The notes below the pieces were generated by a model that was not told the origin of the DNA, did no database searches, and worked only from the letters and a program-made list of their open reading frames with translations. Below are positions 18,530 through 48,616 of a stretch of DNA of 64,000 bases, piece by piece. The translations under genes and the position numbers were made by a program. The DNA lies in NCBI GenBank assembly GCA_027923505.1, contig BROI01000017.1:620001-684000 (forward strand), written 5' to 3'. This DNA comes from Mayamaea pseudoterrestris. Lineage: Eukaryota. Within the stretch, counting starts at the first letter, position 1, and the number at the start of each line of letters is the position of its first letter.

Positions 18530-19326
18530 CTACGTCATTTTCAAATTTAGCGCTTCAACAATCGTCTTGAGTGCACTTTGCGCCGATATGACTTGCTTTT
18601 TTGCTTCTAGCAAATACTTTAATACATTGTCTTCTCCACCTCCTGGATTGTATTCGCCAAATTGACTCACGTAAGCCATGCTATTGCTCATGGCCATGGC
18701 TCCCTCCCATTCCTCGGCAGCTTCAAAAATCTCCGGTAGCTTGTCTGGATCAATGCTGTCCATGTATCGAATCTTGGCAAACACTTTATCAATCTGGAAG
18801 AGAGGATCAGTCGTTGTTCTCTGGAAAAGAATATTGATGATTGGTAAGCATTGCCTTCACGAACATACGACATCGCTGAGCAGAAGACAACGTTGAAAAC
18901 ATACCAGACCGAGAGCTCTTCGAATAGCGTCGGAATCTCGTTTGCATTTGCCTCCGCCACCTTCTTTGCAAACTGTCGTTTCTTCCTAAACGTTTAAGAT
19001 GAAGAAAGACGAGTCAGTCTCATTTCTTTTCCATGTCAGCTGACAATCACACAACGTACATCAAAATGGTCAAGCAAGTAGTTGATTTGCTTGTAGCCCT
19101 TTACAATTCGATCCAATTCTTCCGCGGTCGGCCCAGCACCAGCTGCAAAGGCAGATTGTATTCCAAAGTGATGCTGAGCAACGAAGAACGCAGTGCTTCC
19201 ACCAACGGCAGTCGCAAAAGCTTGTCGCCGATCCATGGTGGAAAGTGCCAGAGAATGCGCCAGTGACGTCAAACCAGCAATGGCGACTAGTAGCTGCATC
19301 TGTAGCAATGTTATTGATCTCATCAT
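18530..19326 (-). CDS. Plastid-targeted, probably thylakoid-lumen protein, 3 exons (introns 18986-19059, 18821-18904)
   Basis: Signal peptide, then an RR motif, hydrophobic stretch and AFA cleavage site (TAT-like). The exons splice in frame. Confidence 0.7.
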
Positions 19327-19630
19327 GTACTTTAACTGACAGAATGCCCAAGGAGATGGCGCCTATCAGGTGATGTGATGTGTGCAGCGCGAAAGATCGC
19401 GCGGTTCGAAATCTACGGTTGCACTATTCGGTTCATGTGCTTTTTCGACGTCAACCGCTTAGCTATGTAGGAGTAGCATTCCTACATGAGAGTCTAATTC
19501 TGTCTAGGGGGCTTGGTTTATGGATGTGGTTGTGTTTGAATATATTAATCTTTGGATGACATTTTGTATTGAATGTGGATGTAGATGACTTAATTGGTGA
19601 CTGTGTTCGATGCTACAAGTGTATGTATAT

Positions 19631-19941
19631 TGTAACTTGTAAATCAAATCGTTGCACCTTTCGCTTGTAGCTGTCCTTGGATGGCCAATCCAAGCTTGCA
19701 GTTGCTACAATACGAGAGACGAATAAATCGCTTTCTTAACTCTTCAAGCTTAGTAAGTCTGCTTGTTTCTACTCTATATCGCACTAGTTTCAGCAATATA
19801 CTTGTTGAATCGCTTCGAAGCCGTCGCTGCCACGCATCACGCGATCGTGAGGCTGTGGTGAGCCGCGAGTGCCGCTGTGTCACCCTATCGGACATTCGGT
19901 GTGACTTGCCCGATTTTCGCTGTTTTCGTTCGCATCCTGCA
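19631..19941 (-). repeat. 3' LTR of element 1 (TG...CA, ~311 bp)
   Basis: Follows the PPT. Its terminal 25 bp (tgtaacttgtaaatcaaatcgttgc) recur at 24689-24713. Confidence 0.8.
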
Positions 19942-22900
19942 ACTCCCCTCAAGTCATACCTAATAGTTAGATTCCTTGAAGAGCAGGTTCTTTAAGTGCT
20001 TGCTTGCCGTAGCCCGTGGAAGAAACTTGGTAAGTACATCCGCCGGGTTTGTCGTTCCCATGATGTGGTTGAAATTAATAATTCCCGCCGCAATCGCTTC
20101 GCGTACACGGTGAAATGCCAGTGCATTGTGTCGCTTCGTCAGACTAGAGTGCGGTAGGTTGCTGCTTTGCGTTACCGACTTGTTGTCTCCAAACATCCAT
20201 GAAGGTCCGTCGAGCGGAACTCCCAACATGCGTAGCGTGAAGCGAAGATCCATGATCTGCTCCGTGCTCACTCTCGCTGCTACAAACTCCGAGCCGTACG
20301 TCGCCGTCTCGACCGTCGCTTGGCGTTTCGAAAACCAATCAACGACTGTTCCATTCAACATGTGTAGCATGCCCATCGCTGCCCGTCCCGTCGTGTAATC
20401 GTGGTACAGGTTCGCATCTTCGAACGTTGACATTCGCACCGCCTTGCCGCGCGGCGTGGGCATGTTCCACGGAAGCTCTTCGCAGATCTTGCCGTACACA
20501 CTGTAATCCCAATCCATCTTGTCAACTGTCGCGTATCGCTCGTCCGTTGGAATCGAAACGTTGAATCGAATCGCTCCATCCGGGTATCTTCGTAGGTATC
20601 CGCAAATATGCTTCAACCGTTCCAAGTGCCCCGCTCGTGGCGCAGCTCGGAATCTCCCCATAGTCATGACAGCACAGTGAATGTCGAATCGACATAAACT
20701 TACTGCCCATTGCAACGCACCAATTATCGATTGATACTTCGCAATTCCGTCGTCGTCAAGTTCTTTCGTTTCGTCGAGTTCCGGATGATCGCCGTCGCGT
20801 AGTGGACTTGTCTGCGGTCGCGGTTCCTCGCCGAACATTTCTTTGTAGTTCGCTAGTAGTCTTGTGACGTACTTCTTCGCTCCGAAGCAGAGTACGCCGT
20901 CGTCGTCTCGCCAAACGTCTGCGCCCAAATGATATGCCAATGGACCGACGCCCTTCAACTTGTAGTTGTAGTTCTCAATTAAAAGATTCGTTAGTTCCTT
21001 CGGATTCTTCATCGCTATCGCTAAATCGTCGACATACACACAAACGTATTCGTAGTGCGTGCCTTTATCGCGCATCCACACGTCCGGTTCTGCGATACAC
21101 GGCATGAAGCCAATGTCGCGGAGCGTGTCTGCAAAGTGCTCGTGCCAGCGTGCGCCTGACGTGCGAAGACCGTATAATGCCTTCACGATCGTGAGCGTGT
21201 GACCCTCGAGCTCCCGAACTCCGGACCTGCCACGATATAAACCTTCTCTTTCGTTTTCGCTTCCAAGTATGCGTTGCCGACGTCAGCTGCCCACAGTTCC
21301 AGACCGTTGAGTTCCGCTAACATCGCTACCATTCGTAGACTTCGCAATGACACAACGCCCGAGTAAACTGAATCCTTCGGCGGCTCTGTCATATGTCCTC
21401 CTCACACGAGACGTGCTTTCCGTCGCAAATCGTACTTCACATCGCACATCATGTGCACGTTTATTCGTTTCCACGCCGCCCGCCTAACCTTACCGACTCC
21501 TTGATCTGCGAACGTGTCGTAATCATTTATCTGGATTTAATTCCGTTCGAATCGCATCCGTCCACAGCGTGTTGCCGTTGATCTCGTCGAGAGCTTTCGC
21601 ATCTTTATAATTGCGCGGCAACCTTACGCCGAATGTAGCGTACGCCGTTTGCTTCGATTTTCGTTTCGCCGCTGTTACCATCTGTCGAAACTTCTTTCCT
21701 TCCGAGTGTAATGCTCCAGCTGCTTCCATCCTGGCTTGTCGAGTAAGCCGTGCTTGAGTCCATACTCTGCGATCGTTATCGGATCGTCCTTCTTCATGAT
21801 CGCGAGAGGCTCCACGTTGTCGTTACGTCAGTCCATTCGACGAGAACGTTACTTGAACTTCCTTTGTATGTCGGATCGTTCGGTTTCAAATTAAGCTCGT
21901 GTCCGATTACCTTCGTGAATACCCACTGAGTCGCCGGATCGTTTCGTATATCTTCGTCCATCTGTCGTTCGATTAAATCCGACAGTTCGTTGTAATCATT
22001 AAGTCTTTCGCTGGCTCCTCCCATTTAGTTGAAACGCGCCTCGTTTCGAGTGGCTCGGTTATCGCCTTCCGATATTTCGCATGCAGTCCTCATTTTTCTC
22101 CGTTTTGCCGTGTTCCCTTACGAACGTCGTCCGATGGGTTCGCGGAAGACCAGCATTTCTTCCTGATTCCTCATCGCTTCTGAGAGAACTTCGCTGGTAC
22201 GTTTGGCGTGGTTCTGCTCGTGTTTCGTCGTCGTTTCCTTCCGTGTTGTTGTTTACTACTTTCTGTCACATGCGTGCGGTGGCGTCCTGTCGGGATCTCG
22301 TTCGTCGAAATCGTCGTGCGCGTGCTCGACATCGCAAACAGTCGAGTCCTTACTGGCACGTCCGGACGTCATGATGACAGTCGGATACTTATCCAAATCA
22401 TCGAACGGGTTCTGTCGTCCAAGTACACCAGGCCATCGCGAATTGCCAATGGTAAAACGTAGCCCAATGTTCGTCGTAATCTGTTGCGTTCCGCCAAACA
22501 TGGTCGGAATATCGTCGACGGGATGTCCCATTGCGCGCAATTGATTCGGGCAATGAATCGTCGGTCCGTTCCCGCTTTTAAAGCATACTGGTGACACAGA
22601 AGCAGAATGGTTTCGCCACTGGCAGGGTCTTTGCCAGTCCAGCTGCAGTGCCAATCTTGAGCTGGGACAATATGATCGTCAATACCAGTCACATCCACCC
22701 GGCGTTCGCTCCGAAACGACGAGCATGCCTCTCCGCATAAGCTTCCGCCTGCGCCGTCGATGAGCGCGCCTTCGTTGATCCGCTCGTAGTGTGCGCGATT
22801 GACGCGCATACGACGATGCATGTTGAAGCTGAATGTACTCGTCCGGTGTTATCAGTCGTCAACGATCCTGTCACTTGCTGAGTTGTAGTGCAATACTCGC

Positions 22901-24713
22901 ATTGTTCGCTTGCAGAACCGATCGCAGCCAGGTTTGGACTGACATTCCACTATTGCCGGGCTGAATATTAATCGTGCCAGGAACGCTTCGGTGTGATCGT
23001 TCGCTACAGATTCCGTCGCGTGATTGATGCGCCGCGTTGACTTGCGTCTGCGTCGTAGCCAGGCCTCGCTGGTTGCGCGGTCGCCATCCGTTTCGGGTGT
23101 CTTGGCGCCGTCGCACGCTTGTCCTTCAACTGCTTTCGCTGATCAAACTCATCTCCAACCAGACTTCATCCTTCACGCTCGCGTGAGGTTTTCATGATCG
23201 CTGCAAATCGTTCCGCTGATAAGCTGCTTGGAGTCGCGCCGCCATTGCCGCCGCCGCCTCCTTTCGTTCCACTAGACTGCGCTTGATTGATTGTGCGCTT
23301 AGTCTTCGTCGTCGATGGGTGTTTCTTGTCATACTTGATGCAGCACTTTCTAAGTGCGCGTACAACTGCGCGAAATTGTCTTCCGGAGTCGTGTTGCCCC
23401 ATGTGTCTTTGATGGCAATCATTCCGTCAAAACCTGCTAGTGATGCGCTGAATCCTGTGTGCTCGGAGAAAGCGTCGCGTAGATGTCGTATCGTTGTAAA
23501 CTGTCAGAGCTTGGGCGTCCATTTCGAGCAGCCAGATGACTTTCAGAACAGTGCGAGAAATTGATCGTCGGCCGTGACCACTTCTCGGTCAGCCGCATTC
23601 CCTGCAGTTCCGTTCGCGCGCGTTCCTTCTCGATGTGAGCAGTAGCGCCTCTTCGTATCGCGTTCCGCAATCGTTGGTAGACTTCGCGTCCGTCCATCGT
23701 CTTCTTTGAACTGCTGTACTGCGAGTGATGCAGAGACGGAGTTCGACAGTGTGAGAGATCCTGTATACAAACACATTTTCTTGCATACGCCTCTGTTCTT
23801 TCGGTTTTCCTTCTGGTCATAATCGCTGTCAAAGACTTCGTGGAAGTCATGCAATGTAGCGATGACTTTCAACTCGGAATCCACTGTTTCACGAGGAATC
23901 CAGCTTTACTTTTTACAACTCGCCGAGAACTTGATAGGACTTTCGTAAATTCGGTCTGAATACTTCGTCGTCTTCGTCGTCGCCGAGGTCCAGTACGGAT
24001 GTCGGTGATCGCTTTGTCCACGTCCACACCCTCGTCGGTGGCACTGTCGGCCGAGTTTCAATCTTCGTTCGTTAGCGTGGAGTCCTGGATCTGTCCTTCT
24101 TGATTCCGTTTCGTTTCGCTGGAGGTTTCGCTCCGCTTCCGCCGCCCCACGCTCGCAATGTTGCGCCGCTTCTTTGCTCGCAGTTTGACGAACGTCGCCA
24201 GCGTTTTCTGGTGGTCAGTTGCGACCATGTCTTGATGTCCGGCGACTCTTGCGCCAATACCATTCGATCGCGTTCGTGATCGTGCGTTGTTTCATCTTGT
24301 TAGCGAGTGCTTCCTGCTCGTTTCCTGCGTGACATTGTCGCCATCGTCAGTCGTCGTCGTTGTCGTCGTCGTGACGTTCCACTTCGTCGCGAAATCGTCG
24401 TACTCATCTCGATCAGTTGCGTAAGCGATTCTACTCTGGAGTTCGCCGAATAACCTTGAACTGGAGGATTTGAAAACGCTCACGTTCTCTTTCGTAAACA
24501 TGCGCAAACGCCGCGTCTTTCTGCGCGCGCGAGTTTCCGCCATCGTTGTCGTCGTGACAATGTTCTTGGCACACCTGCGGAACTTTCCGCCAAGAACCAA
24601 CGTGCGTCCACGCGCATTTCGTAAATCAATAGTACTCTTCAAGGTCGATAAAGTCTTCATGCCGAGTAATGAGTCTCAAGACAGCGATTGTAACTTGTAA
24701 ATCAAATCGTTGC
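19631..24713 (-). mobile_element. Ty1/copia (CoDi-like) LTR retrotransposon 1; degenerate, 5' LTR truncated
   Basis: RT/RNase H ORF 19960-21186 (ALYGLRTSG, YVDD, VETATYGSE, NPADVLTK). Frameshifted gag/protease remnants upstream. Polypurine tract GAGGGGAG next to the LTR. Confidence 0.92.
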
Positions 24714-27700
24714 CATTTGAGACTATGCACCTGTCAATGACATACCCTGGTTTATGTTTGGCCTGACTCATTGGGTATTTGGTGCCAGGGCATAGAGGCG
24801 TTTGTAAGTCCAGAATCGACAGCTTGTAGTGGACCACGCCCAGGAGGCGTCACCCATGGTGTAAGCCTCCAGGCAGTCCTTTTGCACCATTTGAGACTAT
24901 GCACCTGTCAATGGCATGCACCCTGGACATGTTTGGCCTGACTCATTGCGTTTTGTGGCCAGGGCATGGGGCGTTTGACAGGTAAGCGACAACGCGGTGT
25001 TGGCCACTTTCCCACACGTGGGAGGCCCGTGCCATGGTGTCAGCCTAGGCAGTCCATTATTTAGACTCTGCACCTGTCAATGGCATACCCTGGACATGTT
25101 TTGCCTGACTCTGTGGTGTTGAGGTTAGCCTGGCATCAGAGGCGTTTGACAGGTCAGAATCGACAACTTGTGGTGTTGGCCATACCCACCGTGGAGAGCC
25201 GGCACATAGTGTCAGCCTCAGAGCAGTCCTTTTTGCACCATTGAGACTCTGCACCTGTCAATGGCATACCCTGGACATATTTGGCCTGACTCATTGGGTA
25301 TTTGGGGTGGCCCAGGGCATGGGGCGTTTGACAGGTCAGAATCGACAACTTGTGGTGTTGGCCATACCCACCGTGGAGGCGTACCCATGGTGTCAGCCTC
25401 CAGGCAGTCCATTTTGCACCATTTGAGACTCTGCCGCACGTATTTGGCACCTGGACATGTTTTACCTGACTCACTCGGGTATTTGGGTGGCGGGGCATGG
25501 GATGACAGGTCAGAATCGACAACTTGTGGTGTTGGCTGTACCCACTTTGGAGGCCGTGCCCATGGTGTCAGCCTCCAGGCAGTCCTTTTGCTACCATTTG
25601 AGACTCTGCACCTGTCAATGGCATACCCCTGGTTCATGTTTGGCCTGACTCATTGGGTATTTGGGTGGCCAGGGCATGGGGCGTTTGACAGGTCAAGCTC
25701 GACAACTTGTGGTGGCCATACCCACCGTGGGGCCCGTACCCATGGTGTCAGCCTCCAGCATATCCTTTTGCACCATTTGAGACTCTGCACCTGTCCATTG
25801 GCATACCCTGGACATGTTTTGGCCTGACTCATTGGAGTATTTGGGTGGCAGCGAGGGCATGGGAGCTTTGACAGGTAATCAACTTGTGGTGTTGGCCATA
25901 CCCACCGTGGAGCCGCACCCATGGTGGCGGCCTCGAGCAGTCCTTTTGCCCATTTTGAGACTCTGCACCTTTCAATGGCGCTACCCTGGACATGTTTGGC
26001 TGACTCATCGGGTATTTGGGTGGCCGGGAGCATGGGGCGTTTGACAGGTCAGTCGGCAACTTGTGGTGGCCATACCGTGTGCTGGGTGTCAGCCTCCGGC
26101 ATTCTTTTGCACCATTTTGAGACTCTGCACCTGTTAGTGGCTACCCTGGTATGTTTGCCTGACTCATCCGGGTATTTGGTGTGCCCAGGGCATGGGGCGT
26201 TTGACGGGTCAGAATCGGCAACTTGTGGTGTTGGCCATACCCACCGTGGGCCGTGCCCATGGTGTGTCAGCCTCCAGAGCAGTCAATTTTGCACCATTTG
26301 AGACTCTGCACCTGTCAATGGCATACCCTGGACATGTTCGGCCTGACTCATTGGGTATTTGGGTGGCCCAGGGCATGGGGCGTTTGACAGGTCAGATCGA
26401 CAACTTGTGGTGTTGGAATGCCGATACCCCGGGGCCGTGCCTCATGGTGTCGGCCTCCAGGAGCAGTCCTTTTCTTTCGAGACTCTGCTACCGTCAATGG
26501 CATACCCTGTACATGTTTGCCTGACTCATCGGGTATTGGGTGGCCAGGGCATGGGGCGTTTGGCGAGGTCAGAATCGACAACTTGTGGTGTTGGCCATAC
26601 CCACCGTGGAGGCCGTACCCATGGTGTCAGCCTCAGGCAGTCTTTTGCACCATTTGAGACTCTGCCTGTCAATGGCCCCTGGACGATGTTTGGTCTGCAT
26701 TCTTTGGGTATTTGGTGGCCGGGGGTATGGGGCGTTTGAGTCCTCTGCTGTGGTGTTAGCCGCCCACCCCGTGGGCCGTCCATGGTGTCAGCCTCCAGGG
26801 CAGTCCTTTTGCACCATTCTGGACTCTGCACCTGTCAATGGCATACCCTGGACATGTTTGGCCTGACTCATTGGGTATTTGAAGTGGCCCAGGGCATGGG
26901 GCGTTGTCAGTCAGTCGACAGCTTGTGGTGTTGGCCCACCCCCGTGGGCCGTGCCCATGGTGTCAGCCTCCCGGCGGTCCTTTTCCTTTGGCTCTGTCTG
27001 TCCGTGGCTTACCCTGGACATGTTTGGCCTGACTCGGGTATTTGGGTGGCCAGGGCAGGGGGCGTTTGACAGGTCAGAATCGACAACTTATGATGTTGGC
27101 CATACCCACCGTGGAGGCCTGCCCATGGTGTCAGCCTAGGCGGTCCTTTTTGCACCATTTGAGACTCTGCACCTGTAATGGCTCCCTGGACATGTTTGGC
27201 CCTGACTCATTGGGTTTTTGTGGCCGGGCATGGGGCGTTTGACCCGTCGATCGACAACTTGTGGTGTTGGCCTACCCACCGGGGGCCGTGCCCATGGTGT
27301 CAGCCTCAGGCAGTTCTTTGCACCATTTGAGACTATGCCCCTGTCAATGGCATACCCTGGACATGTTTGGCCTGACTCATTGGGTATTTGGGGCCAGGGG
27401 CCGGGGCGTTTGACAGTCAGAATCGACAACTTGTGGTGTTGGCCTTCCCCCGTGGGGCCGTCCCATGGTGTCAGCCTCCAGGCAGTCCTTTTGCACCATT
27501 TGACTCTGCACCTGTCAGTGGCATACCCTGGACATGTTTGGCCTGACTCATTGGGTATTTGGGTGGCCAGAGGCCTGGGGCGTTTGACAGGTCAGATCGC
27601 CACTGTTGTTGGCCCCCCGGCGTACCCGTGGTGTCAGCCTCCGGGCAGTCCTTTTGCACCATTTGAGCCTCTGCACCTGTCACTGGCATACCCTGGACAT

Positions 27701-30700
27701 GTCTTGCCTGACTCATTGGGTATTGGTGTGGCCAGGGCATGGGGCGTTTGACAGGTCAGAATCGACAACTTGTGGTGTTGGCCATACCCACCGTGGAGGC
27801 CGTACCCATGGTGTCAGCCTCCAGGCAGTCTTTTTGCACCATTTGAGACTCTGCACCTGTCAATGGCATACCCTGGACATGTTTGGCCTGACTCATTGGG
27901 TATTTGGGTGGCCAGGGCATGGGGCGTTTGACAGGTCAGAATCGACAACTTGTGGTGTTGGCCATACCCACCGTGGAGGCCGTACCCATGGTGTCAGCCT
28001 CCAGGCAGTCCTTTTGGCACCATTTGAGACTCTGCACCTGTCAATGGCATACCCTGGCCATGTTTGGCCTGACTCATTGGGTATTTGGGTGGCCAGGGCA
28101 TGGGCGTTTGACAGGTCAGAATCGACAACTTGTGGTGTTGGCCATACCCACCGTGGAGGCCGTACCCATGGTGTCAGCCTCCAGGCAGTCCTTTTGCACC
28201 ATTTGAGACTCTGCACCTGTCAATGGCATACCCTGGACATGTTTGGCCTGACTCATTGGGTATTTGGGTGGCCAGGGCATGGGGCGTTTACAGGTCAGAA
28301 TCGACAACTTGTGGTGTTGGCCATACCCACCGTGGAGGCCGTACCCATGGTGTCAGCCTCCAGGCAGTCCTTTTTGCACCATTTGAGACTCTGCACCTGT
28401 CAATGGCATACCCTGGACATGTTTGGCCTGACTCATTGGGTATTTGGGTGGCCAGGGCATGGGGCGTTTGACAGGTCAGAATCGACAACTTGTGGTGTTG
28501 GCCATACCCACCGTGGAGGCCGTACCCATGGTGTCAGCCTCCAGGCAGTCCTTTTGCACCATTTGAGACTCTGCACCTGTCAATGGCATACCCTGGACAT
28601 GTTTGGCCTGACTCATCGGGTATTTGGGTGGCCAGGGCATGGGGCGTTTGACAGGTCAGAATCGACAACTTGTGGTGTTGGCCATACCCACCGTGGAGGC
28701 CGTACCCATGGTGTCAGCCTCCAGGCAGTCCTTTTTGCACCATTTGAGACTATGCACCTGTCAATGGCATACCCTGGACATGTTTGGCCTGACTCATTGG
28801 GTATTTGGGTGGCCAGGGCATGGGGCGTTTGACAGGTCAGAATCGACAACTTGTGGTGTTGGCCATACCCACCGTGGAGGCCGTACCCATGGTGTCAGCC
28901 TCCAGGCAGTCCTTTTTGCACCATTTGAGACTATGCACCTGTCAATGGCATACCCTGGACATGTTTTGCCTGACTCATCGGGTATTTGGGTGGCCAGGGC
29001 ATGGGGCGTTTGACAGGTCAGAATCGACAACTTGTGGTGTTGGCCATACCCACCGTGGAGGCCGTACCCATGGTGTCAGCCTCCAGGCAGTCCTTTTTGC
29101 ACCATTTGAGACTCTGCACCTGTCAATGGCATACCCTGGACATGTTTGGCCTGACTCATTGGGTATTTGGGTGGCCAGGGCATGGGGCGTTTGACAGGTC
29201 AGAATCGACAACTTGTGGTGTTGGCCATACCCACCGTGGAGGCCGTACCCATGGTGTCAGCCTCCAGGCAGTCCTTTTGCACCATTTGAGACTCTGCACC
29301 TGTCAATGGCATACCCTGGACATGTTTGGCCTGACTCATTGGGTATTTGGGTGGCCAGGGCATGGGGCGTTTGACAGGTCAGAATCGACAACTTGTGGTG
29401 TTGGCCATACCCACCGTGGAGGCCGTACCCATGGTGTCAGCCTCCAGGCAGTCCTTTTTGCACCATTTGAGACTCTGCACCTGTCAATGGCATACCCTGG
29501 ACATGTTTGGCCTGACTCATTGGGTATTTGGGTGGCCAGGGCATGGGGCGTTTGACAGGTCAGAATCGACAACTTGTGGTGTTTGCCATACCCACCGTGG
29601 AGGCCGTACCCATGGTGTCAGCCTCCAGGCAGTCCTTTTTGCACCATTTGAGACTCTGCACCTGTCAATGGCATACCCTGGACATGTTTGGCCTGACTCA
29701 TTGGGTATTTGGGTGGCCAGGACATGGGGCGTTTGACAGGTCAGAATCGACAACTTGTGGTGTTGCGCCCCCCCCCGTGGGGCCGTCCCTGGTGTCAGCC
29801 TCCGAGGCAGTCTTTTGCACCGTTGGACTCTACCTGTCAATGGCTTTCCCTGGCATGTTTGGCCTGACTCATTGGGTTTTGGGTGGCCAGGGCATGGGGC
29901 GTTTTGACACGTCAGTCGACAGCTTGTGGTGTTGGCCATACCCCCGTGGGCCGTGCCCTGGTGTCAGCCTCCAGGCGGTCCTTTTTGCACCTTGAGACTC
30001 CCTGTCCTGGACATGTTTGGCCTGACTTCTTGGGTATTTGGGTGGCCAGGGCATGGGGCGTTTGACAGGTCAGAATCGACAACTTGTGGTGTTGGCCATA
30101 CCCACCGTGGAGGCCGTACCCATGGTGTCAGCCTCCAGGCAGTCCTTTTTGCACCATTTGAGACTCTGCACCTGTCAATGGCATACCCTGGACATGTTTG
30201 GCCTGGGTATTTGGGTGGCCAGGGCATGGGGGCGTTTTGACGGTTCGAATCGACAACTTGCGGTGTTGGCCATACCCACCGTGGAGGCCGTACCCTGGTG
30301 TCAGCCTCGGCAGTCCTTTTGCACCATTTGACTCTGCACCTGTCATGGTCCTGGACCCGTTTGGCCTGACTCATTGGGTGTTTGGGTGGCCGGGGCATGG
30401 GGCGTTTGACAGGTCAGGTGCACTTGGTGTTGGCCACTACCCCCCTGGGCCGTACCCATGGTGTCAGCCTCCAGGCCAGTCTTTGCACCATTTGAGACTC
30501 TGCACCTGTCGTGCCATACCCTGGACATGTTTGGCCTGACTCATTGGGTATTTGGGTGAAGCTCGGGGCATGGGGCGTTTGACAGGTCAGAATCGACAGC
30601 TTGTGGTGTTGGCCCGCCCACCCACCGTGGAGGCCGTACCCATGGTGTCACGCCTAGGCAGTCCTTTTGCTCCATTTGAGACTCTGCACCTGTGGGCATA

Positions 30701-36700: not shown

Positions 36701-37196
36701 AACTTGTGGTGTTGGCCATACCCACCGTGGAGGCCGTACCCATGGTGTCAGCCTCCAGGCAGTCCTTTGCACCATTTGAGACTATGCACCTGTCCAATGG
36801 CATACCCCTGGACATGTGGCTTGGCCTGACTCATTGGGTATTTGGGTGGCCAGGGCATGGGCGTTTGACAGGTCACAATCGACAAGTTGTGGTGCCATAC
36901 CCACCGTGTAGTACCCATGGTGTCAGCCTCCAGGCAGTCCTTTTGCACCATTTGAGACTATGCCTGTCAATGGCATACCCTGGACAGGTTTTGCCTGACT
37001 CATTGGGTATTTGGGTGGCCAGGGCATGGGGCGTTTGACAGGTCAGAATCGACAACTTGTGGTGTTGGCCATACCCACCGTGGCGGCCGTGCCCATGAAG
37101 TCAGCCTAGGCAGTCCTTTTGCACCATTTGAGACTCTGCCTGTCAATGACACCCTGGACATGTTTGGCCTGACTCATTGGGTATTTGGGTGAGGGC
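24714..37196. repeat. Tandem satellite array, 180/181-bp monomer, ~69 copies
   Basis: The unit catttgagactctgcacctgtcaatggcataccctggacatg...cagcctccaggcagtcctttt(t)gcac recurs head-to-tail, e.g. at 28200, 28380 and 28560. The length variant is a T4/T5 run. Confidence 0.98.
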
Positions 37197-37577
37197 ATTA
37201 ACACACGTTGATGATTTACGTGGTCGTCATGCCTCAAAAGCTCCGATACAGGGTCCTTGGCCACGGTCTGTACAGCTCTTGATGGAGATGGCTCGTCGTC
37301 AGTCTTGCGCTCGCCACTACACAAAATACGACTGCTCTCGTCATAAACTAGTAGTTCTATATTGTGAGCTTATCGCTACATCGCTACATCGACCGCGGAA
37401 GATCATCCGATCGTTTCTTTCAATCACATTACATCAGTCATGTCGCTCATTCCATTCATACAACGCATACGACGAGTTGCGCACTTTCTTCATTCACATG
37501 TCACATACGACAGCTGCGGACTCGAGACAAGCTAATTGGGGTTCGGGCTCTTGACTTCGCCGCTCTGCGACTTGTCA
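37197..37577 (-). repeat. 3' LTR of element 2
   Basis: Matches 44704-45098 and begins TGACA directly after the PPT. Confidence 0.88.
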
Positions 37578-40500
37578 CTCCCCCTCAGGTACGCTGCTCA
37601 ATCGTAGCCACATTTTCACAATCGCTGTTCGGAAAACAATACTGGCTAGCAGTAGCATGCATCACAGTGCGGCAGGTACTTCGTCAGTCGTCCGCAATGT
37701 TCTCCTTTCCGTCAATCTTCACAAACTTGATAATCCGCAGCCTTTGCCCAACGGACACGATGGTAGGCCAACGCATTGTGTCGCTTGGACAATGTCGAAC
37801 TCAGGATTGTAGATTTTCACTTTCTTGGTTTTCCGTACATCCAGGCAGACTTTAATAGTGCGCCTAGCCATGAGCGATGCGCGTGAAATGCTGATATCAC
37901 GTTCCTCTTTCTACGCCCGAATTCCGATCGAGAAGGTCGCAGTCTCGACTGTAGCCTGGGTTTGCAGTGCCAGTCGACAGGCGTCTGGTTGACAAATGGT
38001 AAAACTCAGCTTAATGACTTGCCTGTCACCATGCAATGCATGAGACACGCATCCACCGAAAGTTGATGTTCGCACAGTCACCCTTGGGTAGGCGTAACAT
38101 CTCATCAACTCCGTCCTTCGTAAACGCTGCGCTCCCAATCTTGTTCCTCCATGGTGGAAGTGCTCCTCGTTGGCTGGCCACTTCGTCGCGGAAACGGATT
38201 GCTGCGTCGGTAACTCTCGCAAATACTCGCGCTTCACCCACTGCAGGTGTCGCTGCGCGGCTCCACACGGAATCGCGACAGACTTGCTACACGCAATGTC
38301 AAATTAGTAATTGCCCACTGAAGTGCCGACTAGAGACTGGTAAATCTTCTTCTCTTGGTCGTTCATTAGCTTTTGGTCAAGTTCTGGATGATCGTGCGTC
38401 GATTGTTGATGAATAGCTTCTTCAGGACCTTCAAACAAGCGCTCGTACTGCGCCAAGAGTTTCTGCGTGGGTCTTGCCGACCAGTAAAGAAGTTCGTCGG
38501 GAATCTCGTCCAAAGTCACCGCCGAGATGATACTCGGGATGTCCAACACCTTTGAGCTTAAACTTGTACTTCTCCTCTAGCATCTTGAAGACGCTGCTGG
38601 ATCGTCTGAAATATTCAACAGTGTGAGCCAGCACAGAGGTAGTCATAGCTGTCGCCGGCGTCCTTGATCCACAAATCGGAATGGCAATAGGACGGCTTCC
38701 ACCCTTCCGCAAGTAGGGTGTTGGCTAAGCGTTCGTGAAATCGTGCTCCGCTCGTTCGCAATCCATACAAAGCCTTGATGATGACCAGGATGTGTCCTTC
38801 GCGCTCCCGATCGGGGCCTCCAACGAAGTATACCTTCTCCTTGTTGAGCGGCTTCTAAGCATTCCCAATGTCACCAACCATCTTCTTGCCGTTCGCTTCT
38901 CCAATGACGAGAGCTAAGACGCATTGCCTTCAATGAGATAACACTGGAGTAGGCATCGTCGTTGTCTTTTCGTCAGGTGACGCCTGCAGCGAGACGTGCC
39001 TTGTATGCAAATCGTGCTTGACATCGTACACAAAATGAACTCGGATCTTTTGGTAACCAGTTGGTGGTGTTGTGGTGGAACTCGGACCGAGATCTTGAAA
39101 CGTCTCGTTTTCGTCCAGGTTATAAGCTCTCCGCCTTCCGCATCCGTCCACTTTGTGTGCCCTGCTTCCTGCAAACATCGCGCTTCCTTCCAATCTCGAG
39201 GTGCAGACTCCAAACTTGTAGCGCGGTCCGTTCTTCTGCTGCTTCCACATTCGGGCGATCGCCACGCCGCGCACTTCTTGGCGTTGGGCCCATTGATTCA
39301 ACGATGCCCATCCGTCCTTGTCAAGATTATGCTTTTGCGCGTAGGCTGCCACTGATACTTTGTAAGCTTTCGATCATCGCGTTGAGAGGCTCCCAAGTCT
39401 TGGATCCATCGTCCCCATTGCACAAGGACGTTCCACTTGGAGTGCTTCCAGTTCTTCGACTTGCTTTCGTCAGCGGACTAGTGGTCTAGAATCTCTTTGA
39501 AGAACCATTTTACGCTCAGGATTCTTATGTCTTGGTTCACGCCGGCCTCGTAGAATCGGAAACCTCGACATATGACATGACTTCCTCCGCTTTCGCCGTT
39601 ACCAAGCTTCAGCATCATTTTAATGTTCTGATGGTTCTGCTTTGTCCTTGATTTGTTCAACGCTCATGGCCGGTCGCTCGAACTACTTGCCCGTCGTCCG
39701 TCTTCCGAGGAAACGACTTGCCGATAAGTTCATCGGGTGCATACTTCGGTTGCGCCACGGATTGATGTTCTTCTTCTTCTGACTTGTAAATGAGTCGTCA
39801 TCGACTTGAGTTTGAATCTTCCTCCCGTGTTATGATGTCTTCGGTATTCCCCGTCTCAACTATAGAAATTATCGTCTTCGTCAGGAATGAAGAATCATCT
39901 GCTGTCGGCGGTAATCTTCTTGATCATTTCCGGCATAAGGATCACCAGCCACCTAGACCAGGTGCGGTATAGAACGCGGCTCCTTCTTTCATGACTGGGA
40001 AGCAGGTGCCGTGCGAAGGTTCAAAAATTGGGGTCGTTTCGGGAGTAAGCAAACCGATCCGTCATGATGTCTCGTGTGTCTTGCAATCGCAGATGAAGTA
40101 CGTCAGGTCATCTCGCTGCGTCGTGTTGGGACCAAGCCGATGCGCCCGCTCCGGGTACCGACATCCTTGACACAAAGTAGTACAATTTCAAACCAACGAA
40201 AATGCAAATACTCGCCGTTGGGGCGTTTGATAAACTCATGGGAGCTTGCCGTCAAAGGCAGGATGCGACAAATGACGGTACATCTCGGTCTGGAAGAGTA
40301 AAGCGCGTAGCCAGAAGCATGCCAGTGCCCGTTCGGTCGTATGACTTTTCCTTTCCGCCCAATGGCGCTCGGCTGGATTTTGATTCTGATAGTACGGCTC
40401 CGATGTATGGCGGCGGCGGAATATGACTTCGCGCTTTGACTCATCGCTTCTTTCGCATTGAAACTTCCGCGAGACTTCAAACTCGCCGGATGAAATCACG

Positions 40501-43500
40501 GTGTTTTGGTACGTCACTTTTCGCTGGGGACTGACTGTGACAACCATAGAAAGCTGCATGTGCACCACTGCATAATCGTCGATATGGTCATCCATGGCAG
40601 GTTCGTCGAGAAGAACATGGTGTCATGGGCCACTCGTACTAGGCGGTACGTCTCTTCCCGATGCTTCGTGGGGGTAGGCTCGTGCATGTTGAACGCGTGC
40701 TATGCGCAGAAACCATATGATGTCGTCTGCGCCAGGTACCATGCAAGTTCGGCATCAATGCGCCGATATCGGTTCCTTTGGCAGGATAGACTTGTAGGGC
40801 TGATAGGCGAGATCCGCGTTGTACTGTACGACGGCACAAACATTCAGCTCCTTCTCGGTGTAAACAGGTTGATTGTCGTGTCGAGATTCGTATAAGTCAC
40901 GTTGCTCTGACGATGGGTGCGATTCCGTACGAGCATGTCACGCGCGTGAAGCTCTTCGTTCACTGTCTTCGTCTTCGTCGGCGCGACAACAAGTCCGGTA
41001 CGTCGTTCGTCGTCATCATCATCCGAAGAGTCATAGTCGTCGTCCTTGGTGCTGAGCGTCAAACTCATCGGATCCCAAGGCCCATGAAGGTCATCATGAC
41101 CCAGGTAAGGTATGGAGCTCATGCGCCGACACTGGAAACGATGGCAAGGTCGCCATGCGCTTTCCATTCCGAGCATAAACTTGTATCCATCTGGCGTTTC
41201 GATTCGTAACGCAAAGTTGTAATGCTTGTTGTTGCCTTGAAGTCCGAAGGCTTCCATCTGCATACTTGAATGAATCATCTTGCGGTTAGAATATGCGTAA
41301 TTATGGAACTCATATGACCCAACCTTAGTGCTCTTAAGCTTGGCGACTGCTGTGACGGTAGACAAGTCCGGAAGTTGAGACCACCAACTCCAGTGACTTC
41401 AATCTTGTGGAACTTGTCCTCATTGGAGATGCGACGTCCGCTCCCCATACTCCGCCACTCGCGCGCGATCGACAGTCGACGCTGAATGCTTATCAAGTCA
41501 ATGCCAGCGACTTTGGCATTTGCGACTCACAGGCAATATTTGCTCCCAGGTCGTAGTCGTGAGCTGGTCTGGACCCTAAGAAACTTTGCATCGCTGAGCC
41601 ACCGTGTTGTAATCCTCGGATGTTGGACTCGGTACGCCAATGAGAAAGCGATGCATCACTTTGCGCGAGTGAGTAGTCGGCTGGTTCTCCGCAAGAGTAA
41701 CACGTCTAGTCGTGGTTGGATTGACAGCTGCAGCAGCAGAGTTGTCGGGCGCGTTGGCGGGCGCGTTGGGCGCGTCGGAAACCGTCGGAGGATTGACAAA
41801 CTTGCGATTGCAAGTGAGCAGGTCTTCATAGAAGTAGAGTTTCATGTTGATGGTGGCTTTGGTTGCTTTGGAGATACTGTGGAGAGAGTAGTCGCTGTTG
41901 GTTATACTGTTGATCGGTCGGCCGAAGAAAAGTGAAACGAGAGGTGAAGGTGCGCCGGTGTCAGTTTTTCGTGGTACAGTTCCTACGTGAGGTTTGTCCT
42001 TCGTCGGGTTGTCGTCGGGCAAAATGAGCCTATGCTGTAACTTGGCGGGATCTTGGTCGTTTTCGATATTTCTTGATTATAATGATCAAATTATAGTGGT
42101 TGATGATGATTCAGGTCATTTGAACTATGTTAACTGTGATATAGATGGCGTGCGACGTCGTTCAGGAGGTTCCAAAACTGGGTGTACGCCATCGGGTTGC
42201 CGGTCTTGGACTCTTCGATCAGCGCCATGTTCACCGCCGCTGCCATATCCGCATGGCGGAAAACCGCGCGTTCCAAAATCTGACGCTTCGTGCTTGCTGT
42301 AAGTAGCTCGGTTTCCTCGGCGTAGTCATTGTAGTTCTCTTCCTTGCTGGACCACTGGATGAGCCAATTGACGAGAGATTTGGCGTAACTCGCATCGAGA
42401 GTGAAATTGCGCCATTCGTCTTTGGCCGAACGTAGATCCAACTTGCGCGCCATCCCGTCGAGAAATGTCGCCTCCAACTCTGCAATGCACGCTGAGGCAT
42501 TCGCGCTGTCGATGTGCTTGCGGACAATGAGCTTGCTCTGCGGTGTCTTGCAGGTATACTCGAGCGCCGCTAAAAGCTTCGAACACTGATACTGATACTC
42601 GGCGAATTCGGGCTCGAGTGCAGCTGGTGCCTTGAACTCGTCGTCCCAAAAGTAGCCAAGTCGCTTCGCATGCGGTTCTTGAAGGCCCGCCAGTAGGAGT
42701 AGAACTTGCGATCGTTCTTGAGCTCCAGCATGGTCTTCAGATCCAGCTTGATGTCGTGTCGTTTCGTCGTGGTGTCGTTGCCTCCGATAACGCTAAAGTC
42801 TCCGAAACTGCGGTTGCCTGCTGTCGGTGACCCCGGCGCTTGGTGCTCTTAAGCTTGGCGACTGCTGTGACGGTAGACAGGTCCGGAAGTTTGAGACCAC
42901 CGACTCCAGTGACTTCAATCTTGTGGAACTTGTCCTCGGTAAGGATGCGGCCGTCCGCTCCCCATACTCCGCCACTCGCGCCGCGATCGACAGTCGATGC
43001 TGAATGCTTATCCAAGTCAATGCTCGCGACTTTGTACTTGCGACTCTGAGCGATATTCGCTCCCCGAGTCGTAGTCGTGGGCTGGTCTGGACCTAAGAAA
43101 CTTCGCATCGCTGAGCCACGGCTGGTGTTGTTCACACGCTTGGTCGCCGCACTCGCCGTCGTTGCCGCTGATGAAGTGGCTGCGACGTTTGCGTTGCGTG
43201 TTGTACTCGTCGTCTGCGTGGTGCCTGCCTGTGTTGCTGATGTCGAACCACCTGCAGCACTGGCCGCTCGACTCGTACCACGGCGTTCAAACACTTCATG
43301 TTGCTGATCGCGGGTAAGGAGTCGCCACGTGTTTGGTGGTATCGTCGCATTCACGTCGCTGGGAATTTCGATCGTCTTCGTGTCGGCATAGCTGCGAACA
43401 TACGAACGAGTATCTCCCCGACCGCGGCCGCCGCCGCCTCGTCCCGTGCTCAAGTCGCCGCGACCACCGCCCCCCTGATTGGACTGCTGATTGTTGCTGC

Positions 43501-44695
43501 TACTTGGCGTAGACTGGGAATTGTTCGCACTTGCCTTCTTCGTCTTCTCCTTCTCTTTCTTGGTCTGCTCAGATTGGTTCGCCTGACGCTTCTCGGTCTC
43601 CTTGATGCCACGACGATTGTCAGATTGACGTGCGACGTCGTTCAGGAGGTTCCAAAACTGGGTGTACGCCATCGGGTTGCCGGTCTTGGACTCTTCGATC
43701 AGCGCCATGTTCACCGCCGCTGCCATATCCGCATGGCGGAAAACCGCGCGTTCCAAAATCTGACGCTTCGTGCTTGCTGTAAGTAGCTCGGTTTCCTCGG
43801 CGTAGTCATTGTAGTTCTCTTCCTTGCTGGACCACTGGATGAGCCAATTGACGAGAGATTTGGGCTAGAGTGAAATTGCGCCATTCGTCTTTTGGCCAAC
43901 GAAGAGATCAACTTGCGCGCATCCCGTCGAGAAATGCCGCCTCAACTCTGCAATGCACGCTGAGGCATTCGCGCTGTCGATGTGCTTGCGGACAATGAGC
44001 TTGCTCTGCGGTGTCTTGCAGGTATACTCGGCCGCTAAAAGCCGAACAAACACTGATACTGATCTCGGCTTCCGGGCTCGAGTGCACTGGAACTCGACGT
44101 CCAAGTCGCTCGCTTCGCATGCGGTTCTTGAAGGCCCGCCAGTAGGAGTAGAACTTGCGATCGTTCTTGAGCTCCAGCATGGTCTTCAGATCCAGCTTGA
44201 TGTCGTGTCGTTTCGTCGTGGTGTCGTTGCCTCCGATAACGCTAAAGTCTCCGAAACTGCGGTTGCCTGCTGTCGGTGACCCCGGCGCTACTGGGAGGTC
44301 TCGGCTCGTAATCTGGTCTTTCTCCAAGTCTTGCCATTGCGCAGTCGTCCGACGTTGCTCGTGAATCCAACTCATGAGCTTGCGCAATCGGCTTGTTCGT
44401 ATCGTCGACCACTGGTACTGGGTCTTAATGTTTGTCACGTCTTGTTCCGACAGCTCGGCCATCGCCTCCGCAGTCGTGAGTTCCTCTTGCTCGAAACACA
44501 CTGCGGTAGGGTCGTTTGGATCCCAAGTTGCGGATGCTGCGAGCCACGGAATGTCGAAGACTTTACCGACGGCACGCTTGTAGGTCGTTACATCAATCGT
44601 CGCCATGTTGGAGGTTGATCAGAGGAATCGGACTCGCTGCAGACGAATGTGTCACGATAGCTCCCTCGCTCGTTCTCGCTCTCAAAGCACTGAAA

Positions 44696-45098
44696 TGTTA
44701 ATCTAACACCGTTGACGATTTCGCAGTCAACGTCTTACCTCCAAAAAGCTCCGATACAGGGTCCTTGGCCACGGTCTGTACAGCTCTTGATGGAGATGGC
44801 TCGTCGAATAGTCTTGCGCTCGCCACTACACGAATACGACTGCACTCTCGTCGCAGACTAGTAGTTCTATATTGTGAGCTTATCGCTACATCGCTACATC
44901 GACCACTCGGAAGATCATCCGATCAATCCGTTTCTTTCAATCACATTCCATCAGTCGTAACTGGTCGTTCCATTCATACAACGCATCCACACGACGGTTG
45001 CGCATTTTCTTCATTCACATGTCACATACGACAGCTGCGGACTCGACACAAGCTAATTAGGGTTCGGGCTCTTGACTTCGCCGCTCTGCGACTTGTCA
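44696..45098 (-). repeat. 5' LTR of element 2 (TGACA...TAACA)
   Basis: Direct repeat of 37197-37577, lying just upstream of the gag ATG at 44606. Confidence 0.88.
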
Positions 45099-48000
45099 GC
45101 CGAGCACGTTGATGAAATTCATAAGCGAACGAGGCGCTCCACTCGAGCTCTTCTCTGACTGCGCTAAGGAAGCTTGCAGCAAGGAAGTTGAGGAAATCCT
45201 TCGTATGATGATGATTCGGCGTCATAAACGAAGCGAGCCATACCAACAGAACCAAGATCCCGCGGAGCGCGCCATTGGCGACGTCGAGCGCCAAGTGAAT
45301 GTCGTCATGGATCGTACTGGGACACCAGCTCCATTCTGGTTGCTTTGTACGCTGTACATTGCGAGTCTCTTTTGCGTTATTTCCCAAGCTTCTTTACAAG
45401 GGAAGACTGCCTTTCAGCATACTACTGGCCAAGTCCCAGACATTTCGCCATACTTGAATTTCCATTGGTGGGAGCGTGTATCTTTCCTTGACGACAATCC
45501 CGACAAGATGACTGATAGCATGCAACGCGCTGGTCGTTTTGTTGGCGTTGCAAAGGATGTGGGCGACCATTTAACTTATTGGATCCTTGATGAGGAGACG
45601 ATGAAGGTCATTCCTCGGTCTGTTGTTGCAAAGCGCGACGATCCTGCAAACCCCAATCTCCGGCTCGATACGCCGACTGTTTCTGCTACTGCAGATGGGG
45701 AGGCATTCGTTTACACGCAAGACGGCATCATTGAAGCATTTAACTTGAGTGATAAAGACGAAGAGTCTCCAGTAACAGACAGCGGCGAGCGCTCCCCGGG
45801 TGAAACCGTCGAGAGCGACGAGTCGAGCAATCCTTCGAGCAATCCTAATCGTCCTCAAACTCGATCACAAACTAAAGCAAATCCTTCTCCAAGCAATCGC
45901 CCCAAGTTGCCTTACTTTTCACCTGAAGATTTGATTGATCGGTCCTTTCTATACGACGCTCCAAACAGGCAACGCCTTCGAGCCGTCGTCAAACGCAAGC
46001 TAGACACGTTGGACGCTCAGAATCATCAAAACATTAAGTTCCTTTTGCATCTTGGTAAAGAAGAAGCGGAGGAGGTGATTGATTACGTTAAATTGAACGA
46101 CATCTTCGAGGCTCTTGTGCTGGATGAGGTAGCTAACCCTCAAGCGTGGCCGACTTACAAAGAAATCCTTTCCCACGCTGGTCCGTACACAAACCGGTCC
46201 CCTGAGTGGCGTGGAAGCAAGTTTAACGTGTTGGTATTATGGGACGATGGCGAGGTAAAATGGGAGCCATTGAATCAATTTGGCAAAGATGATCCCGTAA
46301 GCTGCGCCGACTATGCTCGAGACCATGGGCTGCTTGAGACGGATGGATGGAAGTTTCTGCAGAAGCATGCGAGGCGAGACAAGCTCCTTAAGCGCAAGAT
46401 CAAAGCAGCGAAGTCAGCTCAATCAAAACGCGGTCCACGCTACAAGTTTGGCGTCCGTATCCCTCGCGACTGGCGTGAAGCTCGTTCCTTTCAAGAGGAA
46501 GCTGGCCATACCAAGTGGACTGATGCGGAGCAAGTTGAAATTGACAATCTATTTGAGTACGATACGTTTAAAGACCTCGGTAAAGGCGACAAGCAACCGA
46601 AGGGGCATCAAAAGATCCGCACCATTTGGGTCTACGATTGCAAACATGACTTTCGCCATCGAGCAAGGATGGTGGCTGGAGGGCACTTGACGCCCGAGGC
46701 AGACGATGCTTACTCGAGCGTCGTATCATTGGAGATTATGCGCTACGCGTTGGTGATTGGAGAGCTGAATGGACTCAAGCCCATGGTCGGCGACATCGGC
46801 AATGCGTATCTCGAGGCGTACACTAAAGAGAAAGTTTATTTCGTCGCTGGTCCTGAGTTCGGCCATCTTGAAGGGCATTCCCTGCTCATTGTCAAAGCTC
46901 TATACGGTCTGCGAACTAGCGGAGCTCGTTTCCATGAGCGTCTAGCCGATGCTCTGCGTGACGAAGGATTCAAACCTTCGCTGGCGGATCCCGACCTGTG
47001 GTTGCGAGACACTGGCGATTGCTACGAGTATATATGCGTCTGGGTTGACGACTTGCTTGCCATTCTGAAGGATCCAGAGGCGTTTTACGAGGCGCTGCGC
47101 AGCAAGTATCAGTTCAAATTGAAAGGCGTCGGGCAACCCGAGTATCATCTTGGAGGCAACCGTCCGGTACGCTGATCCTGATGGCACGCTTGGCGACCGG
47201 TGGTAAGCTTCGGCAATTACGAGCGCATGTTTGGCGGTCCTCCAAAGAAGTATTCTTCGCCGCTCGACAAGGACGACCATCCTGATTTAGAGCGCGCGCT
47301 GGAGCGCAGAGCTCGCCGATTGCTGCGCGCCGATGGAGTCAAGATGTCTTGCGGATCCTTTCATATCGGAGCAGTGATCGAGCCTGTAGGGCATCTTGAT
47401 AGAGCGTTCGTGGCTACGCGTGATCATCCTGACGCTGCGATTCGCTTCCGATTCTGGCCTGGGCAATCAGCATTGGAGAGCAACCCGAGTTTGGATTGGA
47501 TGTAAGCGTCCGCGGAGGATGAGCTTGCTTTATATCCTCCACCAAAGGGAAGAATGGTGCGTCTGACGACATGGAAAGACGCCAATTTAATGCACTGCAA
47601 AGTAACTGGCAAATCTTGCAGCGGCATTCTTCATTTCATTAACCAAACGCCCGTCAAGTGGTTCTCCAAGTTACAAGATACAGTGGAGGCGGCAACGTTT
47701 GGATCTGAGTCAATGAGTGGACGCATTGCTACCGACCATATCATCGGGATGCGCGCGTCGCTCAAGGCGATGGGTGTGCCTATAGAGAAGACCAGCTGGA
47801 TGCTTGGAGACAACCAGTCGGTAATCACTCAAAGCACAGTCCCTAGCTCAACACTTACAAAGCGTCACAATGCTCTGGCCTACCATCGGATTCGCTGGGC
47901 GGTGGCGACTAAGGTAATCAAGTTCGTCAAGGTCGACGGTAAGGAAAACGTCGCAGACCCTCTGACCAAGTACATGAATTACACTGAGTCAATGCCTTTG

Positions 48001-48435
48001 ATCAAGCCTCTGTTATTCTGGAGAGGAGAGACTTTGATTGAAGGAGATTTGGGAGCTGGCAGCCGATCTGCTTAAGCGGAGTGTCAGCCGATTACATGAT
48101 TGAATACTCGAATGCTCTTGTCGCATGCGACATGAGCTATACATCAATACCTGGCTCGTGTGTGAATCGCCTGTTAATTAAGGACGATCGCCTGTTGGAT
48201 CTATTCAACGGGAGCACATGGACAGTTACATACAAAATTAGCGGACGCTACAGGATTAGCAGACTGTAGCGGGTAACTCACTTTCTATAGTATCACGTTG
48301 TTTTACCGACGTTGTAGATTGTGCCTCTTGCAATACGAGAGCAGTAAAGGAGAAGTGCACATCTCTGGTCTGCTTAAGGATTGTACAGAGGATTGAAGAC
48401 CACTGTCGAGCATCTTGCAAAGAGGCCGTGTGACA
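45099..48435 (+). mobile_element. Ty1/copia (CoDi-like) element 3, 5'-truncated (partial integrase, RT, RNase H, 3' LTR)
   Basis: ORF 45109-47175 (SEPYQQNQDPAER, GRFVGVA, ARMVAGGH, ALYGLRTSG, WVDD) and ORF 47554-48075 (VEAATFGSE, ENVADPLTK). Confidence 0.93.
48082..48435 (+). repeat. Putative 3' LTR of element 3
   Basis: Starts TGTCA just after the pol stop and a purine-rich tract, and ends TGACA (perfect 5-bp terminal inverted repeat). No second copy in the window to confirm it. Confidence 0.65.
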
Positions 48436-48616
48436 TACCGGTACCGTAGGCTGGGGCAGATCCATCGCCGGAGTGACGTACCGGTATACATTTCTACGTT
48501 CATTCCGCTTCATCCAACCCGGTAGCCGAAGATGGCTTGCAAAATTGATATCCAACTCATCAGCAAAAGTAATATAGAGCACCATATCGTCCACGCCAAG
48601 ACAAACGCAAAAGACC

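Follow-up and report, generated by a model that had tools for sequence, protein, structure and literature searches.

The stretch analysed here, called the window throughout, comprises 64,000 nt of Mayamaea pseudoterrestris contig BROI01000017.1 (GenBank assembly GCA_027923505.1, contig positions 620,001 to 684,000, forward strand), and all coordinates below refer to it. A gene-free repeat island of 29 kb (19631–48435) lies in the window within a gene-dense stretch of diatom chromosome, and is built of a satellite array with about 180-bp monomers and of three broken Copia-like long terminal repeat (LTR) elements, one to its left and two to its right. With moderate confidence, the island is regarded as a single interstitial site of a family of about 180-bp satellites that is abundant across the genome, lying in a small graveyard of Ty1/copia elements, that is, as a silenced island with no segregation role of its own; its silencing, its methylation, the mechanism of exchange and the absence of a kinetochore function are what we infer. 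The first-pass annotation of this DNA had proposed either a satellite centromere or a heterochromatic knob. Either proposal is compatible with the anatomy (nucleosome-sized monomer, embedding in LTR elements, interstitial position, no telomere repeats), while the G+C-rich composition is the opposite of that of tested diatom centromeres, and the knob half of the proposal is judged the most likely.

Pfam searches with 43 translated open reading frames (ORFs) from the island and its surroundings revealed no host gene between 19.6 and 48.4 kb, as had been claimed from the letters alone. The only matches within the island were three to RVT_2 (E 1.1e-12, 4.4e-19, and 0.0045) and a sub-threshold one to DUF5753.

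Satellite array

The array (24713–37198, + strand) has 70 full monomers of about 180 bp and one partial monomer of 75 nt. Tandem Repeats Finder delimited it as 24713–37191 with a period of 181, 70.4 copies, 85% matches, 9% indels, and a score of 17110. When a 180-nt consensus was used as BLAST query, 71 contiguous matches were obtained from 24713 to 37198, every one on the + strand, and no further copy in the remainder of the window. The tandem repeat of about 12.5 kb and nucleosome-sized period described in the first-pass annotation was thus recovered by both programs, and the array is satellite DNA in the sense of long head-to-tail tandem monomers.

Its G+C content is 55.8%, compared with 51.8% in the rest of the island and 48.1% outside the island. 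The array shows observed/expected ratios of 0.37 for CpG, 1.46 for TpG, and 1.96 for CpA, which fits a methylation-driven loss of CpG, methylation being presumed; in the elements and host DNA the CpG ratio is 1.07–1.54. The left element (19631–24686) has the highest value, 1.54, against 1.07–1.14 in host DNA and 0.37 in the adjoining satellite, a fourfold difference, and the left element and the satellite seem to have had very different methylation or age histories.

All ORFs of the array come from one monomer frame that happens to be stop-free. No Rfam family reached the gathering score anywhere in the window, four monomers (28199–28920) gave none at E ≤ 1 either, and no tRNA genes were found. 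An array of RNA genes (5S, tRNA, snRNA) is ruled out by these zero counts of Rfam families and tRNAs; the array is non-coding and is not an RNA-gene array. Special dyad symmetry was not found either, as the monomer dimer gave z = -1.59 and 10 of 100 shuffles folded as well. Non-B DNA or a dyad structure was rejected, only short imperfect palindromes being present. The monomer dimer had no similarity to the non-array part of the window, where the best match was 29 nt long (E 0.17) and situated in a host gene.

Higher-order repeats were absent, with mean monomer identity flat at 0.867–0.875 across lags 1–15. Two homogenised blocks were recognized on the + strand. Block 1 (27839–29643) consists of monomers 19–28 with 0–4 substitutions per monomer relative to the consensus, and block 2 (32432–33870) of monomers 45–52 with 0–6; the two are near-identical, and mean identity among their 18 monomers is 0.974. 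The other 52 full monomers carry 5–34 substitutions and up to 29 deleted letters relative to the consensus, and are found both between the blocks and outside them. Their divergence is star-like: for 47 of the 52 the nearest neighbour is a block monomer, for none is it a monomer within two positions, and identity between non-block monomers is 0.833 as against 0.896 between non-block and block monomers. There are 375 transitions and 521 transversions in the array, and deleted letters exceed inserted ones; the deletions are often 2–16 nt long and not tied to homopolymers, except at a T5 run. The direction of drift differs by block, with 130 AT>GC versus 69 GC>AT changes in monomers 29–44 and 72 versus 111 in monomers 53–65. 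Two readings remain for the diverged monomers: an old burst whose copies decayed individually before the master sequence of the family replaced some of them, or a partly unpolished assembly, so that the star-like divergence of the 52 might in part be assembly noise. Changes from the consensus across 24713–37198 are also strand-asymmetric, with 120 A>G on the 32 A positions of the consensus compared with 85 T>C on its 48 T positions.

Abundance of the satellite family

A run search with 22001–32000 against Logan contigs returned eight runs from two studies, none of them recorded as RNA, which contain 0.08–0.26 of the sampled words. Contig depth was then compared on 19001–27700 in four of them (X1, X2, X4, and X5); summed contig depth does not equal copy number, as it includes contigs of other copies and other organisms. 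In X2, depth is 128.4 and 82.9 on the single-copy flank (19001–19580), 3,312–93,355 in the bins of the left element, and 176,073–2,336,219 in ten satellite bins. X1 has 2.05 and 0.36 on the flank, 304–7,735 in the left element, and 50,883–264,424 in the satellite. The flank has no cover in X4 and X5; their left-element bins reach 14.8–29.6 (one contig at 29.6) and 8.31–16.6 (one contig at 16.6), and their satellite bins 2,844–22,928 and 314–7,705, respectively. Two of the X2 flank contigs match the window exactly, and another shows five differences.

The X2 satellite bins therefore stand at 1,400–28,000 times the single-copy flank in summed contig depth, which is not a copy number, and those of X4 and X5 at 10^2–10^3 times the element contig on the same measure. 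Since 70 local monomers can raise depth by at most about 70-fold, the family must be far larger than this array, and a rough reading puts it at about 10^4 monomer equivalents. Confinement of arrays to one locus, which the first-pass annotation had named as evidence against its proposal, is contradicted by the X2 depth, whether the arrays are centromeric, dispersed, or terminal. X4 and X5 share their study with X2 and have about 0.1–0.7% of its depth; they may represent carry-over and not independent occurrences.

A protein search with the open frame of the monomer gave one match among 11 candidates: P0152, an ORF of 101 aa from an independent environmental assembly, which is about 1.7 variant monomers in translation, with 76% identity. 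Related arrays thus occur in environmental data. Metagenome scans with a 22-mer found in 34 of the 71 monomers, and with a gapped pattern matching 30 places in the array, gave no loci.

Copia-like elements and junctions of the island

Tblastn with eight metagenomic Copia polyproteins, relatives of the ORF of the right element, located three pol remnants, in agreement with the earlier observation of LTR elements on both sides of the array. The left element (19631–24713, - strand) is a degenerate Ty1/copia-like LTR element, with RVT_2 (E 1.1e-12) in ORF 19963–21282 (-); tblastn placed its pol at 22105–19975 (-) and a gag-side match at 23712–23533. On the minus strand, the segment 19941–19631 begins and ends as TG...CA, and a purine run, GAGGGGAG, lies immediately upstream of it; it is therefore read from the sequence as the 3' LTR of this element (19631–19941, -, about 311 bp), its inner boundary being putative. 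Contig depth in bins 19581–20160, over this LTR, is 2–3 times that of the element interior.

A direct repeat of 27 bp is present in two exact copies in the window, where none is expected from 100 shuffles. Copy 1 (19629–19655) represents the terminal 25–27 nt of the 3' LTR, and copy 2 (24687–24713) is a remnant of the 5' LTR, which is reduced to its last 27 nt and adjoins the array, the first monomer beginning at the final base of the remnant. The left edge of the island at 19629/19631 is supported by this perfect repeat as well as by Logan contigs starting at 19630. Contigs of 6207 nt (X4) and 5454 nt (X5) hold 19630–22020 and 22294–24640 in circularly permuted order and link 24640 to 19630 across about 50 nt, which is the pattern of an LTR element collapsed by short-read assembly. 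Their identity with the left element is about 99% (18 and 16 differences, respectively, over 2391 nt), and between 22020 and 22294 they hold sequence absent from the window copy. The presence of the left element in X4 and X5 with the host flank uncovered is either library carry-over within one study or a recently shared element.

The middle element (37199–45098, - strand) is Copia-like and 7.9 kb long, as recognized from its LTRs, tblastn, and a weak RVT_2 match. Its 3' LTR (37199–37577, -, 379 bp) is 88.7% identical to its 5' LTR (44704–45098, -, 395 bp) in LTR alignment, and the inner end of the 3' LTR is adjoined by a purine run. The pol is degenerate (40406–37664, -), and RVT_2 at 38618–38854 (-) is below the cut-off (E 0.0045). 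Residues 541–649 of P0021, a long relative, matched the gag-side ORFs at 40847–44618 in tblastn; these ORFs resemble copia gag/protease clusters with scores of 0.76–0.88, which are to be taken as leads only. Within the gag-side region (41324–44289, -), about 1.5 kb is duplicated in tandem, with 90–93% identity. The duplication pairs 41324–41602 with 42839–43119 and 42143–42840 with 43622–44289, and minus-strand open frames of 375 and 236 aa are retained in it.

The outer end of the middle 3' LTR is intact and adjoins a monomer cut at about consensus position 82. The 5-nt flanks of this element are GGCAT and GCCGA and hence differ, so that no target-site duplication exists; we read its lack as a sign of later rearrangement.

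The right element (45099–48435, + strand) is Copia-like and 5'-truncated, apparently in the integrase core. RVT_2 (E 4.4e-19) was identified by Pfam in ORF 45076–47172 (+). Tblastn extended the pol over 45082–48063 (+), including one alignment of 1008 aa (45100–48033), in a single frame with two in-frame stops. The right end of the element is putative: the sequence ends in ...TGACA at 48435, which is a plausible LTR end and would mark the edge of the island. A weak rve match (E 0.2) at aa 11–55 of the right ORF is below the Pfam cut-off, and so are those located N-terminal of the reverse transcriptase (RT) in the relatives P0001 (E 0.0037), P0007 (E 0.011), and P0021 (E 0.015). The lineage of the right element (45076–48072, with relatives P0001–P0029) thus combines a clear RVT_2 with an integrase core that stays below the cut-off (rve E 0.0037–0.2). 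The nearest full-length relatives of the right ORF are metagenomic polyproteins without a name, with at most 53% identity.

No nucleotide similarity was found among the three elements, and the RT cores of the left and right ones are 60% identical over 98 aa. The three belong to different lineages, unlike what a single family that seeks out centromeres would produce; at this locus, no dedicated centrophilic family of retrotransposons is seen. Assignment to Ty1/copia is founded on RVT_2 in the left and right elements (below the cut-off in the middle one) and on LTRs in the middle and left ones. Diatom Ty1/copia elements are named CoDi. The elements of the island resemble the diatom Ty1/copia (Pseudoviridae) in RVT_2, possibly in an integrase upstream of RT (matches below the cut-off), in LTRs with TG...CA or nearly so, and in the purine tract before the 3' LTR; they differ in that all three copies are broken and in that their nearest relatives are the metagenomic polyproteins mentioned above.

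Comparison with known centromeres and knobs

The centromeres of Phaeodactylum, the only experimentally defined ones in diatoms, have less than 33% G+C over at least 500 bp and no repeats (10.1101/096016), and the first-pass description of them as short, low in G+C, and devoid of satellite agrees with it. Putative centromeres of Fistulifera are 1.4–2 kb long with 36–42% G+C, and 'none ... highly repeated' is the wording of that source (10.1101/2021.11.10.468027). The locus has the algal group in common with P. tricornutum and F. solaris, and perhaps also the pattern of a single small region on each small chromosome amid gene-dense DNA; their centromeres, however, are 0.5–3 kb, low in G+C, and repeat-free, whereas this locus is 29 kb, G+C-rich, and made of repeats. 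A trough of the Phaeodactylum type (at least 500 bp below about 33% G+C) does not occur in the window, which covers 64 kb of the 724,790-bp contig; the lowest G+C of any 500 bp is 0.40, and that of the array is 0.558. Windows of 100 bp with G+C of 32% or less are not clustered either: there are six among 1279, at most three in any 3 kb (at 10–13 kb), and one in the island.

Satellite centromeres with centromeric retrotransposons are known from plants, with the 178-bp repeat and ATHILA of Arabidopsis and CentC and CRM of maize named in 10.64898/2025.12.07.692804. The array described here differs from the plant type in being 12.5 kb, G+C-rich, and without higher-order repeats, and in having three Ty1/copia lineages beside it instead of one centrophilic family. 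It resembles that type in the monomer of about 180 bp, in head-to-tail arrays, in LTR elements within or beside them, and in homogenised monomers next to diverged ones. The 180-bp knob repeat of maize is a heterochromatic interstitial satellite. Like it, the satellite of the island is abundant, about 180 bp long, interstitial, and mixed with retrotransposons, and the maize knob has no kinetochore role; knobs extend over megabases, whereas the array here covers kilobases and is known from sequence alone.

Among stramenopiles, the centromeres of Phytophthora sojae are rich in a Copia-like element (CoLT), 211–356 kb long, and without satellites (PMC7082073), and centrophilic Copia/ECR elements occur in the brown-algal relatives Dictyota and Schizocladia according to 10.64898/2025.12.07.692804. 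The island is like them in its stramenopile host and its cluster of Copia-type LTR elements in a gene-poor setting, and unlike them in that they have no satellites and one enriched element family.

A full-text search of the literature, with subscription papers and supplements outside its scope, found no diatom for which a centromere built on satellites, or a satellite family that has been characterised, is described. The preprint of a Darwin Tree of Life centromere atlas of 325 species (10.64898/2026.09.17.752431) contains no diatom or stramenopile terms. The mixture of satellite and LTR elements is a well-known kind of sequence, and such satellites appear to be undescribed in diatoms.

Origin and function of the island

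The reading of the locus as a silenced, heterochromatin-type island implies that unequal exchange and gene conversion expand and contract the array and make it uniform in places, which would explain two near-identical blocks among decayed monomers. LTR elements would insert into and beside the pre-existing array, where they are harmless, and deletions or recombination between elements would later trim the junctions. At the left junction, most of one LTR would have been removed in this way; on the right side, the target monomer would have lost its far half and the right element its 5' half. Long-term cytosine methylation would erode CpG. The broken junctions, namely the 27-nt 5' LTR, the truncated monomer beside an element with 88.7% identical LTRs and no target-site duplication, and the right element apparently cut in its integrase, point to turnover and not to a designed structure.

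Several points weigh against this reading. By a rough reading, about 10^4 monomer equivalents divided over tens of chromosomes would give arrays similar in order of size to this one, and roughly one array per chromosome could fit the abundance equally well. Whichever tandem repeat is the most abundant in a genome is often the centromeric one, and the 180-bp monomer and its embedding in LTR elements match centromeres of the plant type. The CpG statistic comes in effect from one 180-nt consensus, with four CpG where about 14 are expected. Moreover, in Fistulifera a clear low-G+C peak is present on only eight of 22 chromosome pairs (10.1101/2021.11.10.468027), which suggests that low G+C may not define all diatom centromeres.

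That the array is a centromere or pericentromeric satellite, with CENH3 nucleosomes on the monomers of about 180 bp and Copia elements piling up at its edges as in plants, is possible and yet on the unlikely side. Such a role is favoured by the nucleosome-sized monomers in one orientation with homogenised blocks beside diverged ones, by the LTR elements to left and right, of which one has inserted into a monomer, by the interstitial position between housekeeping genes with no telomere repeat, by a satellite abundance far above that of one array in four runs of two studies, and by stramenopile relatives with Copia-rich centromeres (PMC7082073; 10.64898/2025.12.07.692804); the window also offers no low-G+C trough as an alternative centromere, though one could lie elsewhere on the chromosome. 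The composition of the array speaks against it, tested diatom centromeres being low in G+C and repeat-free, as do the flat identity across lags, a dimer that folds no better than 10 of its 100 shuffles, and flanking elements of three lineages. It is doubtful, in particular, that CENH3 binds the G+C-rich 180-bp repeat as the centromere satellite of this diatom, each chromosome then having about one array with Copia elements at its edges.

An artefact of assembly would account for part of the structure if the array were collapsed, mis-joined at 24713, or unpolished, with the 52 diverged monomers as noisy versions of homogeneous copies. The star-like divergence around consensus-like block monomers, the almost unbiased substitutions, the excess of deleted letters, and the abrupt switches between clean and noisy monomers are what such noise would give; in addition, about eight of the 12 listed one- or two-base differences between window and contigs are homopolymer shortenings in the window, and the best run has only 0.26 of the sampled words from 22001–32000. 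This explanation is nevertheless improbable: host ORFs of up to 1937 aa are intact, the right pol has two stops in about 1000 codons, deletions of the array are not tied to homopolymers outside the T5 run, and the drift runs in different directions in monomers 29–44 and 53–65. The contigs are mostly other copies, with rare variants dropped, and cannot judge the window copy; the array and the island stand even with real noise. Still less credible is an origin of the satellite from, or its carriage by, a retrotransposon through amplification of a tandem repeat in an LTR or untranslated region, the island then being one expanded element. The array does start 27 nt inside the position of the left 5' LTR and ends exactly at the middle LTR, and plant satellites derived from retrotransposon tandem repeats are documented (PMC7004042). 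The monomer dimer, however, has no similar sequence in the non-array window, and in the contigs that represent the family consensus of the left element, its 3' end passes into its 5' end without any satellite between them.

The rule derived from Phaeodactylum, low G+C and no repeats, underlies the design of diatom episomes and artificial chromosomes; in a species where low G+C fails, the centromere candidate to turn to is an abundant nucleosome-sized satellite embedded in Copia elements. If the array were a centromere, it would be the first satellite-based one described in a diatom, and diatoms would have at least two unrelated centromere types, the short low-G+C one of Phaeodactylum and plant-like satellite arrays. 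If it is not, as a silenced repeat island would imply, the locus clearly illustrates how small heterochromatin islands are built from satellite and LTR elements in an algal genome that is compact and gene-dense.

Host surroundings

Ordinary genes occupy 19.6 kb on one side of the island and 15.6 kb on the other. They include those for a B-family DNA polymerase, a ThiF-family enzyme, phosphoglucomutase, HMG-CoA synthase, a ketoacyl synthase, an S49 peptidase, and Dcc1. The best named relatives of the phosphoglucomutase are from diatoms (Amphora, Cylindrotheca, Fistulifera, and Seminavis) with 55–57% identity, which bears out the first-pass view of the surrounding DNA as that of a diatom. A subtelomeric location is ruled out by gene-bearing flanks on both sides and by the lack of TTAGGG/CCCTAA runs in the window.

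Genes had been noted within 200–300 bp of each edge, which was borne out in part. On the right, a long ORF starts at 48578, 143 bp from the island; it has no Pfam family itself, and the ORFs of this flank (48578–50409, +) end in an S49 peptidase domain at 49675–50409. On the left, contigs of single-copy depth span 19129–19358, and the last ORF supported by Pfam ends at 18419, 1.2 kb away from the island. This flank (15213–18419, +) consists of HMG-CoA synthase and beta-ketoacyl synthase ORFs. The second of them, 16419–18419, carries the C-terminal end of the HMG-CoA synthase domain in addition to ketoacyl-synthase and ACP_syn_III matches and directly follows the HMG-CoA synthase ORF 15213–16376, and the two may represent one intron-split or fused gene.

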